Source of the DNA: a virus
Virus genome (UHGV): UHGV-1581437
Strand: one strand, 5' to 3'
Length of the DNA: 11,751 nucleotides
In this document: positions 1-10,772 of the stretch, piece by piece
Position numbering within the stretch: the first letter of the stretch is position 1
Layout: every line of letters begins with the position of its first letter
Made by a program: the position numbers and the translations under genes
The notes under the pieces: generated by a model
Told to the model about the DNA's origin: nothing
The model's database searches: none
Seen by the model: only the letters and a program-made list of their open reading frames with translations

Positions 1-1773
1 CCCGCCGCAATGCAGCTCAGTGACGCATTGGATACCGTCAGAGATATGTATAGAAAACAACTCCGAAAAGTACCGCCTTCCGCGCCAATCGGGTTCATCC
101 CGGAAAGCTGGAGAAAGGTTGTGATCACCCCCACCGGCATTGACCGAAAATATTACGAATTTTGCGTGCTGAATGAACTGAAGGGAGCCTTACGTTCAGG
201 TGACATCTGGGTAAAGGGGTCACGCCGCTACAGGAATTTCGATGATTATCTGATCCCGTCAGACGATTTTGAAAAATCACTCCGGGATAACCAGTTACCC
301 CTTGCTGTTCCGGCCGATTGCCATGAATACATCAAGAGCCGTTTGACGCTTCTTGCATCGCGTCTGGAAGAAGTTAACGCGATGGCGCTGGCCTGTGATT
401 TACCCGATGTTGATATATCGGATAAAGGCGTGAAAATTACCCCGCTGGATAACAGTGTCCCTTCAGCAGCATCCCCTTTTGGCGATCTGGTTTATGGCAT
501 GCTCCCTCACCCTAAAATTACTGAAATGCTGGATGAAGTGGACGGCTGGACTGGTTTTACCCGCCATTTCACACATCTCAAAAACAATCACGTCAGACCT
601 AAAGACAGAAAGTTGTTACTGACCACCATCCTGGCCGATGGTATCAACCTTGGACTGACAAAAATGGCCGAATCCTGTCCGGGAACGACCAAATCGTCAC
701 TCGAGGGCATTCAGGCCTGGTACATCAGGGATGAAACCTATTCAGCTGCGCTGGCCGAGTTGGTCAATGCCCAGAAAAAAAGCCCTCTGGCGGCATTCTG
801 GGGCGATGGAACAACGTCATCGTCTGATGGACAGAACTTTCGGGTGGGGAGTCACGGGCGTTATGCTGGTCAGGTCAATCTTAAATACGGTCAGGATCCA
901 GGCGTGCAGATTTATACGCATATTTCGGACCAATACAGCCCGTTTTACACCAAAGTTATCAGCCGCGTGCGGGATTCAACACACGTACTTGATGGTCTGC
1001 TGTACCACGAAACTGATCTGGAAATTACAGAGCATTACACCGACACAGCAGGTTTCACTGAGCATGTTTTTGCGCTAATGCATCTGCTCGGATTCGCTTT
1101 TGCGCCAAGGATCCGGGATCTTCATGACAAACGGCTGTTTATTCATGGAAAAGCTGAGTTGTATCAGGGGCTTCAGTCAATCATCTCGACAACCAGCCTG
1201 AATCTAAAGGAAATTGAAACCCACTGGCATGAGGTGCTGCGTCTGGCAAGTTCTATAAAGCAGGGAACGGTAACAGCATCACTGATGATGAAAAAGCTGG
1301 CAAGCTATCCGAAGCAGAATGGTCTGGCAAAGGCGCTGAGAGAGATTGGCCGCATCGAAAGGTCATTGTTTATGCTGGACTGGTTCAGGGATCCTTTACT
1401 GCGTCGACGCGTACAGGCGGGGCTGAATAAAGGTGAGGCTCGCAATGCCCTTGCGCGAGCGGTCTTTATGCATCGGCTGGGTGAAATCAGAGATCGGGGG
1501 CTGGAGAATCAGAGCTATCGAGCCAGCGGTCTGACGTTGCTGACTGCGGCGATCTCACTGCGGAATACGGTATATATAGAAAGAGCGATAGATTCTTTGA
1601 GACGAAAAGGGATCCCGATTAATGAGCAACTGATTACCCATCTGTCACCACTGGGATGGGAACATATCAACCTGAGCGGGGATTACGTCTGGAGAACGAA
1701 CCTCAAACTGGGACAGGGTAAATACCGCGCATTACGCTCAGTGAATAGTAATATGTACAAAAAACAGGCTTAG
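1..1773 (+). CDS. tnpA: Tn3-family DDE transposase TnpA, C-terminal ~590 aa (5' partial; frame is open through bases 1-9)
   Basis: ORF track 10..1773 (587 aa) with no stop in frame back to position 1. Size, composition and a stop codon (TAG 1771-1773) embedded in the terminal IR are typical of Tn3-family TnpA. Not Tn3 itself: the C-terminus differs from the Tn3 TnpA I recall. Confidence 0.88.
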
Positions 1774-2717: not shown

Positions 2718-3749
2718 CTAATCGCCATCTTCCAGCAGGCGCACCATTGCCCCTGTTTCACTATCCAGGTTACGGATATAGTTCATGACAATATTTACGT
2801 TGGTCCAGCCACCAGCTTGCATGATCTCCGGTATTGAAACTCCGGCGCGGGCCATATCTCGTGCGGCTCCGACACGGGCACTGTGTCCAGACCAGGCCAG
2901 GTACCTCTGGCCAGAGTCATCCTTAGCCCCGTAAATCAATCGGTGAGTTGCTTCAAAAATCCCTTCCAGGGCGCGAGTTGATAGCTGGCTGGTGGCAGAT
3001 GGCGCGGCAACACCATTTTTTCTGACACGGCAAAACAAGTAGTTATTCGGATCATCAGCTACACCAGAGACAGAAATCCATCGCTCGACCAGTTTAGTTA
3101 CCCCCAGGCTAAGTGCCTTCTCTACACCTGCGGTGCTAACCAGCGTTTTCGTTCTGCCAATATGGATTAACATTCTCCCACCGCCAGTACGCGAGATATC
3201 TTTAACCCTGATCCTGGCAATTTCGGCTATACGTAACAGGGTGTTATAAGCAATCCCCAGAAATGCTAGATTACGTATATCCTGGCAGCGATCGCTATTT
3301 TCCATGAGCGAACGAACCTGGTCGAAATCAGTGCGTTCGAACGCCAGCGCCTGTTTTGCACGTTCACCGGCATCAACGTTTTCTTTTCGGATCCGCCGCA
3401 TGACCAGTGAAACAGCATTGCTGTCACTTGGTCGTGGCAGCCCGGACCGACGATGAAGCATGTTTAGCTGGCCCAAATGTTGCTGGATAGTTTTCACTGC
3501 CAGACCGCGCGCCTGAAGATATAGAAGATAATCGCGAACATCTTCAGGTTCTGCGGGAAACCACTTCCGGTTATTCAACTTGCACCATGCCGCCCACGAC
3601 CGGCAAACGGACAGAAGCATTTTCCAGGTATGCTCAGAAAACGCCTGGCGATCCCTGAACATGTCCATCAGGTTCTTGCGAACCTCATCACTCGTTGCAT
3701 CGACCGGTAATGCAGGCAAATTTTGGTGTACGGTCAGTAAATTGGACAT
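2718..3749 (-). CDS. cre: Cre tyrosine site-specific recombinase
   Basis: 343-aa ORF starting MSNLLTVHQNLPALPVDATSDEVRKNLMDMFRDRQAFSEHTWKMLLSVCRSWAAWCKLNNRKWFPAEPEDVRDYLLYLQARGLAVKTIQQHLGQLNMLHRRSGLPRPSDSNAVSLVMRRIRKENVDAGERAKQALAFERTDFDQVRSLMENSDRCQDIRNLAFLGIAYNTLLRIAEIARIRVKDISRTGGGRMLIHIGRTKTLVSTAGVEKALSLGVTKLVERWISVSGVADDPNNYLFCRVRKNGVAAPSATSQLSTRALEGIFEATHRLIYGAKDDSGQRYLAWSGHSARVGAARDMARAGVSIPEIMQAGGWTNVNIVMNYIRNLDSETGAMVRLLEDGD, which I recognise as Cre; one position reads G where I recall D (RTGGGRM versus RTDGGRM). A loxP site lies ~410 bp upstream. Confidence 0.97.
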   Translation of the reverse strand: MSNLLTVHQNLPALPVDATSDEVRKNLMDMFRDRQAFSEHTWKMLLSVCRSWAAWCKLNNRKWFPAEPEDVRDYLLYLQARGLAVKTIQQHLGQLNMLHRRSGLPRPSDSNAVSLVMRRIRKENVDAGERAKQALAFERTDFDQVRSLMENSDRCQDIRNLAFLGIAYNTLLRIAEIARIRVKDISRTGGGRMLIHIGRTKTLVSTAGVEKALSLGVTKLVERWISVSGVADDPNNYLFCRVRKNGVAAPSATSQLSTRALEGIFEATHRLIYGAKDDSGQRYLAWSGHSARVGAARDMARAGVSIPEIMQAGGWTNVNIVMNYIRNLDSETGAMVRLLEDGD

Positions 3750-4236: not shown

Positions 4237-4253
4237 AGAATTATTAGAGCAAT
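4237..4253 (-). promoter_or_regulatory. C1 operator (Op99-type), minus orientation
   Basis: Minus strand reads ATTGCTCTAATAATTCT (15/17 to consensus ATTGCTCTAATAAATTT). Confidence 0.6.
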
Positions 4254-4313: not shown

Positions 4314-4340
4314 TTGACAATTGCTCTAATAAATTATAGT
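4314..4340 (+). promoter_or_regulatory. C1 operator (Op99-type) overlapping a sigma70-like promoter facing coi-c1
   Basis: TTGACA (4314-4319) followed directly by ATTGCTCTAATAAATTA (4320-4336, 16/17 to consensus) and TATAGT (4335-4340): a -35 and -10 with a 15-bp spacer fully occupied by the operator. Confidence 0.6.
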
Positions 4341-4574: not shown

Positions 4575-4784
4575 ATGGCTTTCATTCAACCAACCATCGA
4601 CGACGTTAGACATTGCTCTAACGCTTTATCTGTAGACCCTGCCGAAACCGACGCTGCCCGCGCCATTGCTGAACACTACTCAAAGATATCCAATCAGGAG
4701 TACCGCATCACCCAAGACGACCTGGATGACCTCACTGACACAATCGAATATCTCATGGCAACTAACCAGTTAGACTCACAATAA
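4575..4784 (+). CDS. coi: Coi (C1 inactivator), 69 aa
   Basis: 69-aa acidic ORF directly upstream of c1 and downstream of the operator cluster; GAGG lies 7 nt before the ATG. Size and position match P1 coi. Confidence 0.85.
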   Translation: MAFIQPTIDDVRHCSNALSVDPAETDAARAIAEHYSKISNQEYRITQDDLDDLTDTIEYLMATNQLDSQ

Positions 4785-4800
4785 ATGCACTAATAAATCT
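4784..4800 (+). promoter_or_regulatory. Weaker C1-operator-like 17-mer between coi and c1
   Basis: AATGCACTAATAAATCT (14/17 to consensus), followed by a TATAAT hexamer at 4820-4825. Confidence 0.35.
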
Positions 4801-4894: not shown

Positions 4895-5746
4895 ATGATA
4901 AATTATGTCTACGGCGAACAACTGTACCAGGAGTTCGTCAGCTTCAGGGATCTCTTTCTAAAAAAAGCTGTTGCACGCGCCCAACACGTTGATACAGCCA
5001 GCGACGGTCGTCCTGTACGCCCGGTTGTCGTTCTACCGTTCAAAGAAACTCACAGCATTCAGGCTGAAATTGATAAATGGACTTTAATGGCGCGGGAACT
5101 GGAACAGTACCCAGACCTCAATATCCCAAAGACTATTTTATATCCAGTGCCTAACATCCTTCGCGGTGTGCGCAAGGTTACAACTTATCAGACAGAAGCT
5201 GTGAACAGCGTCAACATGACCGCTGGCCGCATTATTCATCTGATTGATAAGGACATTCGCATCCAGAAAAGCGCAGGGATCAATGAGCACAGTGCGAAAT
5301 ACATAGAGAACCTGGAAGCAACAAAAGAGCTAATGAAGCAGTACCCGGAGGATGAAAAATTCCGTATGCGCGTACACGGCTTTAGCGAAACAATGCTGCG
5401 CGTCCATTACATTTCCAGTAGCCCTAACTACAATGATGGTAAATCAGTTAGTTACCATGTGCCGCTGTGTGGTGTGTTTATCTGCGATGAAACTCTCCGT
5501 GATGGAATCATCATCAACGGTGAATTCGAGAAAGCAAAATTTAGCCTTTATGACTCTATAGAACCGATCATCTGCGACCGCTGGCCGCAGGCAAAAATAT
5601 ATCGCCTGGCAGATATTGAAAATGTAAAAAAACAAATTGCCATCACTCGCGAAGAGAAAAAGGTCAAATCAGCCGCATCAGTTACGCGCAGCCGTAAAAC
5701 CAAGAAGGGGCAGCCAGTAAACGACAACCCCGAAAGCGCGCAATAA
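4895..5746 (+). CDS. c1: C1 repressor of lysis (primary immunity repressor), 283 aa
   Basis: 283-aa ORF with strong RBS (GGAGGAGG, 4883-4890). Length, position after coi and the surrounding operator array match P1 c1. Confidence 0.92.
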   Translation: MINYVYGEQLYQEFVSFRDLFLKKAVARAQHVDTASDGRPVRPVVVLPFKETHSIQAEIDKWTLMARELEQYPDLNIPKTILYPVPNILRGVRKVTTYQTEAVNSVNMTAGRIIHLIDKDIRIQKSAGINEHSAKYIENLEATKELMKQYPEDEKFRMRVHGFSETMLRVHYISSSPNYNDGKSVSYHVPLCGVFICDETLRDGIIINGEFEKAKFSLYDSIEPIICDRWPQAKIYRLADIENVKKQIAITREEKKVKSAASVTRSRKTKKGQPVNDNPESAQ

Positions 5747-5778: not shown

Positions 5779-6891
5779 TTATTCAGCCGCCACCGGTTTT
5801 AACAAGCCAGCATCGAGCAGTTTACGCGTCAACCACTGCTGGCCTTTACCCGTTAATTGAGGCGTCAACCGTATCTGGTAGCCATCTTCATCATCCAGCA
5901 CCACTTCTTTCACCGTGAAATACCCCGCGTTGATGTACTGCTGGAACGGCACATTTTTACGTCCACCGGACGCTATCAGGATGCCGTTCTCCCGTAACCA
6001 GACAAACAGCGCGTTTTGCTTAAGTCCAACAACCTTTGCAAAATTCCCAATCAGGATCCCTTTAGCTACTGATACCCGGTCGGCAAAATCGACTTTAGGA
6101 GCGGCGGCCACCAGCTGCTGATTTAGCTGGTGGGCTTTCTGTTCCAAAAGCTGCTTTTGTTCAGCCAGTTCGGCAGCCAGGCGCAGAGCTTCTGGAAGCG
6201 TCTGGGGGATTGCAACCGGTTGCTGTTCTTTTTGCCGGAAGTAGCTGTCTTCCAGTTTTTCAAAGAATGCCCATGCTTCATTTGTGTCCACGATCTTAGA
6301 CATGCGTGCAGCGCCGCGCTCTGTCCAGAGTGTAAGGCTTCTGGCGTTCTTACCAACAGAGTAACTTCCGGTTACTCTGTTCTTAAATTCTCTTAATTTT
6401 AAACCAGTTAGAAGAAAGTAATGCTTACCTTCTTCAAAGCGGTCAAGGTTGCGAGACAAATTGTTGCGAATATTGGCTTCATCGACCCCATACCCTCTAG
6501 CAAGAGTTTCGGTTGTCACGACACGTACTCCCTGCCATTCCAGAACGGGAATTTCATCCGGCTGATTCTGAACAACCACCAGTTCCGATTCCTGAACTGA
6601 AGGTGCATAAATTTTTTCTGATTTAACGTTAGTTGCTTTCATTCTGTGTGCCTCCTTGCGTGCTTCGGCTGCGACGGTTGCGTAATTCAGATGACCCTGT
6701 TCGAGCAGGTATTCACGGATATCGGTTAGCAGAATGCGGTGAACCGCGTGTTTGTCCTTTCTCCGGTAAAGTTGTTTGGTGATCATGAAGTAGTTGGCAA
6801 TAACGCCCGGTATATCCCTGGTACTGATACAGGCAGTGTGCTGTTCAATTGCCTCGATCATCTCTTCACGGGTGACTAATGACGTTCTCAT
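5779..6891 (-). CDS. Ant-like antirepressor (370 aa) with an ORF6N/Bro-N-like central domain and a KilAC-type C-terminal domain; in-frame internal start at 6642 would give a 287-aa isoform
   Basis: Strong RBS (minus AGGAGGG 4 nt before ATG). Central segment LEWQGVRVVTTETLARGYGVDEANIRNNLSRNLDRFEEGKHYFLLTG...LWTERGA...FFEKLEDSYF has the ORF6N pattern; the C-terminus (VDFADRVSVAKGILIGNFAKVVGLKQNALFVWLRENGIL...) is KilAC-like. Domain calls are from motif memory, not a search. Confidence 0.85.
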   Translation of the reverse strand: MRTSLVTREEMIEAIEQHTACISTRDIPGVIANYFMITKQLYRRKDKHAVHRILLTDIREYLLEQGHLNYATVAAEARKEAHRMKATNVKSEKIYAPSVQESELVVVQNQPDEIPVLEWQGVRVVTTETLARGYGVDEANIRNNLSRNLDRFEEGKHYFLLTGLKLREFKNRVTGSYSVGKNARSLTLWTERGAARMSKIVDTNEAWAFFEKLEDSYFRQKEQQPVAIPQTLPEALRLAAELAEQKQLLEQKAHQLNQQLVAAAPKVDFADRVSVAKGILIGNFAKVVGLKQNALFVWLRENGILIASGGRKNVPFQQYINAGYFTVKEVVLDDEDGYQIRLTPQLTGKGQQWLTRKLLDAGLLKPVAAE

Positions 6892-7109
6892 AGTCCCTCC
6901 TGAGCAGAAGCGTTAACAGGGAGGCACCAGTAACTGAGAGAATTGCGCGAATCGGTAGAAAAGCGGGCAGAGAAAATACAGGGAGCATCCGGAAGCTGAG
7001 AACGTGCCTCATCTTCTGTCGGTGCAATAACGAAGTGATAGTGACGTTTTTGGCAGGAGTAAAAGCGCCAGATAAATTCAGGATGAGCAGGGGTAGGGAT
7101 AGTAGCCAC
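6888..7109 (-). CDS. Icd-like small protein (73 aa) translationally coupled to the Ant-like gene
   Basis: GTG start 8 nt downstream of a consensus SD (minus AAGGAGG, plus 7118-7124). Its stop overlaps the ant ATG as ATGA (6888-6891). Size and overlap mirror P1 icd-ant1 (73-codon icd, as I recall). Confidence 0.55.
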   Translation of the reverse strand: MATIPTPAHPEFIWRFYSCQKRHYHFVIAPTEDEARSQLPDAPCIFSARFSTDSRNSLSYWCLPVNASAQEGL

Positions 7110-7117
7110 AATGGCAG

Positions 7118-7141
7118 CCTCCTTTTGCTAATTTAAGGAGC
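7118..7141 (-). promoter_or_regulatory. RBS-sequestering hairpin for the Icd-like ORF
   Basis: Minus strand GCTCCTT-AAATTAGCAA-AAGGAGGC: an upstream anti-SD (CTCCTT) can pair with the SD (AAGGAG) of the small ORF. Confidence 0.4.
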
Positions 7142-7293
7142 TACCGCGTGAGGTCTCAATCTCAATGGCGGTAGCACTGACTGGGTTGAGACTACCGGCG
7201 CAAAAGGGAACCGGCCTGCCTTTCGGCAGCCCAGCCAGCACTACCATTGATCTCTGAGCTAAACGCTACGTATGGCTGTGCGATGGCATGACA

Positions 7294-7322
7294 CAAAAAA
7301 AGACGCTTTTGGCGTCTGTGTC
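7294..7322 (-). terminator. Strong rho-independent terminator on the minus strand inside the module leader
   Basis: Minus strand GACAC-AGACGC-CAAAA-GCGTCT-TTTTTTT-GTGTC: GC-rich stem followed by seven T, with an outer GACAC/GTGTC clamp. Confidence 0.6.
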
Positions 7323-7430
7323 GCCTTTTGCATTATCCGGGGTCTCAATCCCGGCACCCGTTTTACTGAGGTGCCTGATAAGCATAAACCGAAAATGCCT
7401 CAAGGCGCAAGAGGTCAGGTTCAATGTAAC
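7294..7430 (-). ncRNA. Candidate C4-like antisense regulatory RNA (about 120-135 nt) running from the operator-overlapped promoter to the terminator
   Basis: Promoter-like elements on the minus strand (TTGTGT, 17-bp spacer, TACATT) next to a C1-operator-like site. Hairpin CCGGG-AUUGAGAC-CCCGG (plus 7337-7354). Terminator at 7294-7322. The loop is complementary to a downstream leader site. No protein-coding potential. Confidence 0.35.
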
Positions 7431-7448: not shown

Positions 7449-7465
7449 CAATTTATTAGAGCAAA
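7449..7465 (-). promoter_or_regulatory. C1-operator-like 17-mer at the head of the sRNA/icd-like/ant-like module
   Basis: Minus strand TTTGCTCTAATAAATTG (15/17 to consensus), starting 4 nt after the pacB stop and overlapping the candidate promoter. Confidence 0.55.
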
Positions 7466-7468
7466 TAT

Positions 7469-8953
7469 TCATTCATTAAGCCATGCCAGAGCTTCATCAA
7501 CCTGCGCTTCGTCTTCGACGCTAAGCACTTCGTCCTGGGGAACATAATCCGCCAGCATAGCGAAACAATATGTATCCCAATGGTCTGGTGAGTGCAGGTT
7601 GAGTTTTTTCTTCATATCCTCCTTACTCATCACCTTCCATTGACCTGCGGAGTTAATCCCTACAGGGATTTTCGACGCTTCCTCAATAGTTTCATTACCC
7701 TTATCCAGTCTCATACGACCAGATTTTACGGCCTCTGCGGCTTGAACGTTGGCATAAGCACGTTTATCAAAGTACAGGCTCTTATCTTCACGGCTATGCA
7801 TCTTTTTACCCCAGCGTATACGCTGTACGGTAATACCATAATACTCGTACATCAGATCCGCCGTTGCTTTACCCAGGCCATCGCCGTCTATCGCTATGGT
7901 GATATTTGGGAATCGCTCAGGATTACATTCTGCGAAAATTTTGGCGGCAAGCTGCGTTTCTGTAACGTCTGTGTATTCCAGCATTCGATAGTTGATTACA
8001 CGGCGTTTATTTCGCTGGCCGGACACCATCATGATATTGATAACGGACTTATCCCGTCCCGTACCACCAGCAACGTCCACACATGCAAGCCAGCCCCATC
8101 CTTTTGCAATCTTGACTTTCCGCCGCGTTGCACGTTCAACCTCATCACGTCCAAGAAGGAAGCCATCCTGTGATTTAGGGAATAGGCCGCGTACCTTAAT
8201 CATGTACATAGGGTTATCACGCCCGCCGTACTCCGCCAGCTTCATTTTGATAAATGCTGGCGTTACCAACGGTGATTCCTCACTGTTAAGCGTGATCGCC
8301 GTATAAACGCCATCAGGGTTACCAGGACGCTTGGCCAGTTTATGGTGTGTATCGTAGAAATAGCCGCTTGGGCGTGTAGGCTGTGACAGCAATAAGATGC
8401 GGTTATCCTGTCCGGTAAGAGCACCGGTGATGATACCGAAAGCTCTATCACTGACACCGGAGGCTTCATCGATAATATACAGAAGATGATCTGCGTGTTC
8501 ACCGGCGAGAGCTTCTTCACTTCCCAGACGAAAGCCCTTCGGTACTACAGTCCATACACCTTTACCAGTAATCTCATAGAAAGCGGTTTCTGTCAGAACA
8601 AAATAATCAGCAAGCCATGGGAAACGGCTGGTGGCAGTAGCCCAGTTTATCTTGATGTACTTGAATATACCGGTCATTACCTGCTGAATTTTGTTCGCAA
8701 CGATAATGGCACGGGCACCTGGATACATGATTATGAACAACATGATCATGATAGAAGTCATGTCTGATTTCCCGGTACCGTGACCAGACGAAACAGATGT
8801 CTTGCTACCCTGTTCCTGCACAGACTCAATAATCAGATCCTGCTGCCAGGTAGGTGTTTTGCCGAACAAAACATCAGCGGCCGCAATCCAGTCATAACGA
8901 TATAGCGCCACCAGCTCGCGCCAACGTGGATCCGTTACGCAACTTCTGGCCAT
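7469..8953 (-). CDS. pacB: Terminase large subunit PacB (494 aa)
   Basis: 494-aa ORF with a Walker A-like motif (SSGHGTGKS) and acidic nuclease-type motifs. Its ATG overlaps the pacA stop (TAATG). Size and order match P1 pacB. Confidence 0.92.
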
Positions 8954-10755: not shown

Positions 10756-10772
10756 CAATACATTAGAGCAAT
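10756..10772 (-). promoter_or_regulatory. C1-operator-like 17-mer overlapping the lpa promoter
   Basis: Minus strand ATTGCTCTAATGTATTG (13/17 to consensus). TTGCTC inside the operator serves as -35, then a 17-bp spacer, then TTTAAT as -10, all upstream of lpa. Confidence 0.6.

Follow-up and report, generated by a model that had tools for sequence, protein, structure and literature searches.

The virus genome UHGV-1581437 was analyzed over a stretch of 11,751 nt (hereafter the window, to which all coordinates refer). Judged by gene content and sequence, the window contains a P1-type immI operon of the kind present in phages D6, RCS47 and JL22, consisting of an isrK-like RNA, the antisense RNA C4 and the genes icd and ant; all immI features are located on the minus strand. 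Between C4 and icd, the mRNA leader is predicted to fold into a hairpin (7145-7113) that covers the Shine-Dalgarno (SD) sequence of icd. We lean towards the reading that this hairpin is a cis-acting damper of icd, sequestering its ribosome-binding site (RBS), and is likewise the stem-loop that presents b2, one part of the bipartite C4 target. Statements on the function of the hairpin are based on structure prediction and sequence comparison.

The SD sequence of icd lies within a stable predicted hairpin

7113-7145, minus strand: SD hairpin; 5' arm GGUAGCUCCUU (7145-7135), loop AAAUUAGCAA (7134-7125), 3' arm AAGGA-G-GCUGCC (7124-7113)
7135-7140, minus strand: anti-SD core CUCCUU, pairing with AAGGAG (7124-7119)
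7118-7124, minus strand: SD AAGGAGG of icd, 8 nt upstream of the GUG
7153-7159, minus strand: a2, first C4 target, UUGAGAC; exact complement of C4 segment a' (duplex -9.1 kcal/mol), co-varying with a' in relatives
7121-7128, minus strand: b2, second C4 target, GCAAAAGG; exact complement of C4 segment b' (duplex -11.0 kcal/mol), sharing 4 nt with the SD AAGGAGG
6888-7109, minus strand: icd, 73 codons, GUG start; 81% identical to P1 Icd, match to NCBIfam phage_ICD_like
5779-6891, minus strand: ant, antirepressor of 370 amino acids; Pfam ANT and ORF6N domains, 57% identity to P1 Ant1

A first-pass annotation had proposed that CTCCTT pairs with AAGGAG of the SD and thereby sequesters it. The complementarity was present at the positions given there and the pairing proved longer than noted: the hairpin comprises 11 bp with one bulged G and one U.G pair, closed by a 10-nt loop, and the stem extends over the entire SD down to 3 nt before the start codon. 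It was part of the minimum free energy (MFE) structure in both a 71-nt and a 321-nt context. The 33-nt hairpin has a free energy of -13.3 kcal/mol and its 6-bp core alone one of -4.8 kcal/mol. Pair probabilities were 0.89-1.00 in contexts of 86, 186, 335 and 495 nt, excepting C7140, which was divided between G7118 and G7119 at about 0.5 each. Sequestration of the icd SD by an upstream anti-SD is thus upheld as a prediction, and the objection foreseen in the annotation, that the hairpin might not form within the full leader, was removed in silico. A stable local stem over the SD, as looked for in a cis-acting RBS-sequestering hairpin, is accordingly predicted here. The start codon of icd is GUG (7109-7107), versus AUG in most relatives, and an out-of-frame UUG is located 2 nt upstream. 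This weak GUG start would reduce icd translation further.

The motif CTCCTT-N(3-20)-AAGGAG is expected 0.01 times per window and was matched in 3 of 200 shuffles. The a2-b2 spacer was shuffled, and the energy needed to open the SD or the RBS served as measure. Opening the SD costs 8.6 kcal/mol in the native leader versus 4.8 +/- 1.6 kcal/mol in the spacer shuffles, 2.5% of which reached or exceeded the native value; for the RBS window from -14 to -5 the corresponding values were 10.3 and 7.4 +/- 1.8 kcal/mol (p = 0.07). Opening energy replaced the mean unpaired probability, which was uninformative as a test, being saturated by the bulged G and the pyrimidine-rich neighbours. Folding of the whole 71-nt leader gave a z-score of only -1.09, total folding energy being the wrong test for a single hairpin. 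Altogether, the feature is real and probably more than a product of chance; the statistics for this single sequence stay moderate because the pyrimidine-rich surroundings would partly mask the SD regardless.

SD masking recurs in other C4-type leaders

Opening energies were compared among 19 distinct leader types situated downstream of C4-like RNAs, including those of P4, phiP27, Shiga toxin (Stx1/Stx2) phages, APSE-7, Kp4865-1 and uncultivated viral contigs. The RBS opening energy lay above that of the spacer shuffles at p <= 0.125 in 15 of them. Fisher's combined p was 2e-7, against 1e-4 in an earlier version with ten families; both values are optimistic, since the leader types share modules and are not fully independent. 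By this comparison, SD masking is probably a real and selected feature of the wider family.

Two layouts were distinguished. The local type is represented by the window, APSE-7, Klebsiella phage Kp4865-1, L207 and L228: the 5' arm runs from the G-rich segment following a2 into the anti-SD, the 5' half of b2 is in the loop, and the 3' arm starts with the SD and ends shortly before the start codon. In sequence, the arms differ considerably between families (GGUAGC/GCUGCC, GGUGGUGAUU/GAUCAUUACU, GUGAUUA/UGAUCAC, GUGGUG/CAUCAC), such that the APSE-7 hairpin is built from UCCUU/AAGGA plus GGUGGUGAUU/GAUCAUUACU and that of Kp4865-1 from CCU/AGG plus GUGAUUA/UGAUCAC. Leaders of the nested type have a pyrimidine tract immediately downstream of a2 whose pairing with the SD encloses an inner hairpin; the tract sequence changes along with that of the SD: CCUCCU occurs with AGGAGG, CCUCU with AGAGG and ACCUU with AAGGU. 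In a 24-sequence alignment the columns of the window-type hairpin were 80.7% paired, with one pair changed on both sides, and for the outer helix between tract and SD the figure was 76%, its co-variation being weak. That column-wise tests yield little formal co-variation is explained by a nearly constant SD and by masking structures that do not share homologous positions.

It is highly improbable that the feature acts on the DNA level, as a protein-binding palindrome or an internal promoter (TTGAGA, 18 nt, TAAATT). A promoter-like match of 9 of 12 positions does lie across a2 and the hairpin loop (7159-7130, minus strand), but about 0.7 such matches are expected by chance in this region and the hexamers are not conserved, relatives having TTGGAA and TAACTT; we rejected this sigma-70-like match as probably fortuitous. 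Moreover, a U.G pair and a bulge are required for the extended stem, and several G.U pairs for those of relatives. Such stems are functional only in the RNA of the minus strand, that is, on the mRNA, which favours an RNA structure over a DNA palindrome.

C4 and its two contacts in the leader

7164-7251, minus strand: C4 antisense RNA gene; RF01695, full length (1-87), 75 bits, gathering score 45, E = 1.5e-13
7207-7200, minus strand: C4 b' CCUUUUGC, in the loop of hairpin 2; exact complement of b1 and b2
7192-7186, minus strand: C4 a' GUCUCAA, in the junction; exact complement of a1 and a2
7348-7342, minus strand: a1 UUGAGAC, inside a hairpin loop; identical to a2
7331-7324, minus strand: b1 GCAAAAGG; identical to b2

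C4 of the window folds at -46.6 kcal/mol, and the opening costs of a' and b' are 0.0 and 1.0 kcal/mol. In P1, C4 is matured from the operon transcript, with RNase P acting at the 5' end. In the window a tRNA-like closing stem followed by GCCA is visible, and mature C4 would span approximately 7245-7166, as judged by homology with the P1 C4 annotation. The SD hairpin is situated between the a2 and b2 sites in such a way that b2 spans it. The variable half of b2, GCAA, is located in the loop and the constant half, AAGG, in the 3' arm, where it constitutes the first four bases of the SD. Opening the whole of b2 costs 6.4 kcal/mol, but only 0.02 kcal/mol is needed for the loop segment UAGCAA, which contains the variable half.

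We collected 172 related loci from IMG/VR and phage records, representing 23 a'/b' combinations. C4 a' and b' were exactly complementary to a2 and b2 in 21 combinations and usually to a1 and b1 too; the remaining two showed pairing by G.U wobbles only or a non-cognate b2. Within the family of the window, the difference between b2 variants (GCAA or GUCA) is confined to the loop and is matched by b' (UUGC or UGAC), with the stem invariant. This comparison strongly argues for an action of C4 like that in P1, in trans via two short contacts. Features of P1-type loci present in the window are a C4 gene, a'/b' with matching a2/b2, upstream a1/b1 copies and overlapping icd and ant on the same strand.

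The specificities appeared modular, as the a'/a2/a1 types (UUGAGAC, UUGGAAC, UUAGCAG and UUGACAG) combine freely with the b'/b2/b1 types; the 23 combinations suggest frequent recombination between the two contacts. In family C, the larger of the two exceptions (23 loci, e.g. L018 and L123), G.U wobbles alone connect C4 with a2 and b2, and a1 is perfectly complementary to a', such that the upstream copy would be the better C4 binder. L063 is a natural chimera, with C4 b' UCAUUCGU but a P1-type b2 GUUAGUGA in the leader; its C4 should not pair with its own b2, by prediction.

The favoured reading can be laid out as follows. The hairpin would lower basal access of ribosomes to icd, with the weak GUG start contributing. 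C4, processed from its own operon transcript, would pair in trans with a2 and b2; the variable half of b2 would be displayed in the hairpin loop, where the b' loop of C4 could make a loop-loop first contact. On full pairing C4 would take the same AAGG that the anti-SD occupies in cis, so that the SD would be covered in both states and the antirepressor kept tightly off in lysogens. Without icd translation ant would not be expressed either, as its own SD is predicted to be masked by a hairpin that ribosomes translating icd up to the ATGA overlap would melt, and the untranslated, C-rich icd RNA may in addition allow Rho termination before ant.

The first-pass annotation had taken the SD/anti-SD pairing for the mechanism by which C4 represses ant in P1. 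This equation does not hold: CUCCUU lies outside C4, whose Rfam match ends at 7164, P1 is annotated with C4 binding in trans at a2/b2, and the P1 leader lacks SD masking. The annotation merges a cis element with a trans mechanism. According to the P1 record, c4 is flanked by a1/b1 on its upstream and a2/b2 on its downstream side, the latter pair bearing the remark 'repression of icd ant translation'; both this record and a review describe binding of C4 to complementary regions around the RBS. When the P1 leader was analyzed in the same way, opening the SD cost 3.3 kcal/mol versus 3.2 in shuffles (p = 0.44), and the RBS-window test gave p = 0.82. Between a2 and b2, P1 has a stem-loop (UAGCAGGUU-GUUA-AACCUGUUA) over the 5' half of b2, with the SD (GAGG) remaining free. 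Among P1/P7-type relatives, changes of b2 in its 3' arm are met by compensating ones in the 5' arm (A to C opposite U to G).

In the window, by comparison, the stem-loop is positioned about 10 nt further downstream, where it covers the SD together with the 3' half of b2. Leader and first nine icd codons are a different cassette, and the operon is located between pacB and c1. Shared with P1/P7 immI are the gene order and strand, a C4 of family RF01695, the a1/b1 plus a2/b2 layout and the position of b2 at the icd RBS; Icd and Ant (81% and 57% identical to those of P1), the ATGA overlap and an upstream C1 operator are also shared with P1. The P1 layout, in which the icd SD is free when C4 is absent, fails in the window (8.6 versus 4.8 kcal/mol in shuffles). 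The masked SD is a variant and not a ground to exclude the locus from the P1-type systems.

At 7124-7083, SD, start codon and the opening 8-9 codons (M/V-ATIPTP...) make up a mosaic cassette together with C4. Here it is joined to Icd, identity with P1 Icd starting only at codon 10; in Stx phages (L122, L124) it is joined directly to Rha/Ant-type antirepressors.

The anti-SD hairpin could also be the very means of C4: binding to a2 and b2 would then induce, stabilize or clamp the SD/anti-SD helix, with no direct occlusion of the SD. The geometry would suit this, as a2 closely precedes the anti-SD region, b2 begins shortly before the SD and runs into it, the anti-SD tract of nested-type relatives directly abuts a2, and a' and b' are separated in C4 by a 5-6 bp helix similar in length to the SD/anti-SD helix. 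However, CUCCUU is not part of C4 and the hairpin forms at probabilities of 0.9-1.0 without it. For b' to pair with all of b2, four or five base pairs of the stem have to be broken (6.4 kcal/mol), so C4 competes with the upper stem and does not stabilize it. The P1 paradigm, too, operates without SD masking, the P1 record and the review describing direct binding at the RBS. We regard a clamp as quite improbable.

A possible second partner of the 5' arm of the hairpin

7167-7175, minus strand: 3' strand of the C4 closing stem plus tail, GCUACCGCC; complementary to CGCGGUAGC (7148-7140), which overlaps the lower 5' arm of the SD hairpin

Pairing of the C4 3' strand with the segment following a2 was scored on alignment A2 (columns 74-82 with 101-109). 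Over five leader families 88% of cells were paired and four pairs were changed on both sides; none of 500 shuffles scored as high, and slid controls gave 24-52%. Column 103 follows column 80, whereas the 5'-strand partner within C4 itself remains U. The complementarity co-varies in at least ten leader families, P4 among them, and does so irrespective of the C4 5' strand. The duplex has -14 to -18 kcal/mol in ten families, and further perfect versions were found in L220 (GCUACCACC/GGUGGUAGC) and L201 (CGUCACCA/UGGUGACG). Were such a stem to form, a2 would lie in a loop of 18 nt, and the lower part of the SD hairpin would face competition. As an equilibrium structure of the window it was rejected: the 17-bp closing stem of C4 outcompetes it and leaves it a probability of about 0. 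What remains is a conserved but unexplained complementarity.

This co-variation of the post-a2 segment with the C4 3' strand bears on the possibility that SD complementarity is a by-product, the 5' arm being kept for pairing with C4, for mRNA stability or for a2-b2 spacing, with no meaningful effect on icd. The co-varying stem-loop of P1/P7, present at the same position with the SD uncovered, points in this direction, as do the marginal statistics of the window alone. On the other hand, the C4-complementary segment ends at C7140 and CUCCUU is almost wholly outside it, a stem of -13.3 kcal/mol over the whole SD is expected to depress initiation, and unrelated leader families attain SD masking with different sequences. 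We therefore consider a mere by-product rather unlikely.

The AUG at 7247, at the 5' end of C4, opens a frame of 39 codons (MVVLAGLPKG...); its stop codon, UAG 7130-7128, falls within the loop of the SD hairpin. Gifsy-1 orf45 appears homologous to this frame, reading through a C4-like RNA from two AUGs 12 nt apart; it is conserved in nucleotides and not in amino acids. In Stx-phage relatives the frame continues straight into ant.

Two related proposals follow from these elements. The hairpin might be the OFF state of an RNA switch, its 5' arm pairing instead with the C4 3' strand, or that of a coupling relay, being melted by ribosomes on the 7247 frame, which would expose the icd SD. The co-variation of the alternative C4-tail stem and the end of the 39-codon frame within the hairpin loop would agree with this. 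In Gifsy-1, orf45 starts from the same conserved AUG, its translation is a prerequisite for that of the antirepressor, alternative RNA structures have been demonstrated (PMC4825925), and its paired in-frame AUGs 12 nt apart occur likewise in the C4 sequences of Stx phages. Against these proposals, the alternative stem has a probability of about 0 at equilibrium, the C4-spanning frame is stopped early, in the b' loop, in P1, APSE-7 and Kp4865-1, 39 open codons arise by chance in about 15% of cases and the SD of AUG 7247 is weak. A switch or relay is accordingly unlikely. In its broadest form, which we hold to be just as doubtful, the hairpin would be one state of a conserved four-segment switch in IsrK-C4 loci, the 5' arm alternating between the SD-to-start region and the C4 3' strand with its CCA-like tail. 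Were this true, antirepressor translation would be tied to the folding or processing of C4, or to ribosomes crossing it, beyond the action of C4 in trans.

Several points weigh against the hairpin as a damper of icd and presenter of b2. Its function in this phage is wholly predicted. The shuffle tests of the window alone are marginal (p = 0.025 to 0.085), and the mean unpaired probability of the SD in the window leader was not below that of the shuffles, because its pyrimidine-rich neighbours would mask the SD anyway. The hairpin is not simply helpful to C4, raising the cost of b'/b2 pairing by 6.4 kcal/mol, and P1 works without SD masking. The stem is invariant in the family of the window, which hence provides zero co-variation, and relative L042 is without the loop-closing pair. 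Masking structures of different families lack positional homology; when nine local-type leaders were aligned with MAFFT, which mis-registers family A, RNAalifold gave only a weak consensus. Finally, the conserved 5' arm may be constrained by pairing with the C4 3' strand instead.

Possible coupling of ant to icd

6896-6924, minus strand: second predicted anti-SD hairpin; CCUCC-CUG (6924-6917) inside icd with CAGGAGG (6902-6896), the SD of ant

The small open reading frame (ORF) upstream of ant had been called Icd-like in the first-pass annotation, and its identity with P1 Icd and the NCBIfam match agree with this naming. The reported ATGA overlap was likewise present, the TGA of icd lying over the ant ATG at 6891. 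The second hairpin is positioned 5 nt upstream of this overlap, its anti-SD strand CCUCCCUG (6924-6917) being part of the 3' end of icd. As a model, translational coupling of ant to icd is plausible with this hairpin. P1-type relatives have a comparable potential (CCUCCCCU/AGGGGGG), which is not part of their MFE structures. The RNA of icd has a C/G ratio of 1.64, and its first 78 nt contain 33% C and 10% G; this C-rich, G-poor composition is compatible with a Rho-loading region.

In P1, C4 is said to block icd translation, and the untranslated icd then reportedly permits Rho-dependent termination before ant; the link between the two genes is reportedly this termination and not simple translational coupling. 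It had been claimed for the window that a block of icd would shut down ant by translational coupling. Such coupling is plausible, given the ATGA overlap, the ant-SD hairpin and the remark in the P1 record that icd is 'apparently required for expression of ant', but it is not exclusive, as the Rho route is possible as well.

Related systems

The homologous isrK-orf45-anrP region of the Salmonella prophage Gifsy-1 (Hershko-Shalev et al. 2016, PMC4825925) shares with the window an isrK-like RNA with terminator that opens the operon, a processed stable RNA downstream, RBS-sequestering structures and dependence of antirepressor translation on an upstream ORF ending in AUGA. For Gifsy-1, experiments showed that RBS-sequestering structures and translational coupling control the antirepressor (PMC4825925). 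SD masking in the window thus resembles Gifsy-1 in spirit, being experimentally shown there and predicted here. Unlike in the window, where a separate Icd is located between C4 and ant, orf45 crosses the C4-like element itself, and the short IsrK is described as a trans activator.

The immunity region of satellite phage P4 (seqA - CI RNA - seqC) aligned over 149 of 151 nt of the C4-plus-leader query with 72% identity. IsrK corresponds to seqA and C4 to CI RNA (Barquist et al. 2013). Shared elements are the AGGAGGCUGCCAUCAUGGCUAC module, a2/b2-like sites (GUGAGAA and UUCACAGG) and a CUCC tract after a2. In contrast to the window, the outcome described for P4 is premature transcription termination of the replication operon, and SD masking in P4 follows the nested layout and is less pronounced (p = 0.08-0.13).

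In hok/sok, an antisense RNA represses the leader ORF mok, which is needed for the downstream gene, and cis structures keep the mRNA quiet. The logic matches, with icd here in the place of mok, whereas the sequences and the RNA family are unrelated; C4 differs also in sharing strand and transcript with its target and in contacting two short separate sites.

The C4/IsrK family (CI/seqA in P4) is a known immunity family. New is the SD-masking leader, a variant of the P1 paradigm, and this novelty is modest. The C4/IsrK module decides on antirepressor production in P1-like plasmid prophages, Stx phages, APSE phages of aphid symbionts and P4-like satellites. If most leaders fold the RBS away and P1, the sole well-studied case, is the exception, the textbook picture of an open target site would be incomplete. 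Repression would then be layered, consisting of a cis hairpin, a trans antisense RNA and a second hairpin at ant, and escape from it at induction or superinfection would need explaining. For the window itself, the practical gain is a correct annotation of the C4 target sites and of the role of CUCCUU.

Organization of the locus

7449-7465, minus strand: C1-repressor operator-like site TTTGCTCTAATAAATTG, with 2 mismatches to ATTGCTCTAATAAATTT; corresponds in position to Oc4/Op51 upstream of the P1 immI promoters
7296-7374, minus strand: isrK-like leader RNA with a1, b1 and an intrinsic terminator; RF01394, 58.2 bits, gathering score 50
4237-4253, 4320-4336, 4784-4800, 7449-7465 and 10756-10772: P1 C1-operator-like sites, including those upstream of c1 (4895-5746) and of the immI operon

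Downstream of the pacB stop codon at 7469, the order on the minus strand is the C1-operator-like site, the isrK-like RNA, the C4 gene, the 55-nt leader, icd and ant. From the isrK-like RNA through ant, these elements belong to a single transcript. In the whole window five C1-operator-like sites were found versus 0.05 expected. The isrK-like RNA ends in an intrinsic terminator (stem 7317-7301 followed by a U run). With its RF01394 match, this terminal terminator and its place as first element of an antirepressor operon, it shows the features of the isrK family. Annotated isrK is present beside C4 in records of Stx and APSE phages, and P1 has an equivalent layout upstream of C4, though without isrK annotation. 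Having exact a1 and b1 copies of the C4 target sites, the isrK-like RNA looks like a decoy for C4. By eye, no complementarity for a direct opening of the hairpin was seen between the isrK-like RNA and the anti-SD arm.

The DNA of the window is 99% identical to Escherichia phage JL22 and about 95% identical to RCS47 and D6, and a scan of genome contigs based on Icd retrieved just three loci, all near-identical. At one end of the window, a truncated Tn3-family transposase (10-1770, plus strand; profile positions 391-954) adjoins a Cre-like tyrosine recombinase of 343 amino acids (2718-3749, minus strand), which suggests a transposon insertion near the lox/cre end of a P1-like genome.

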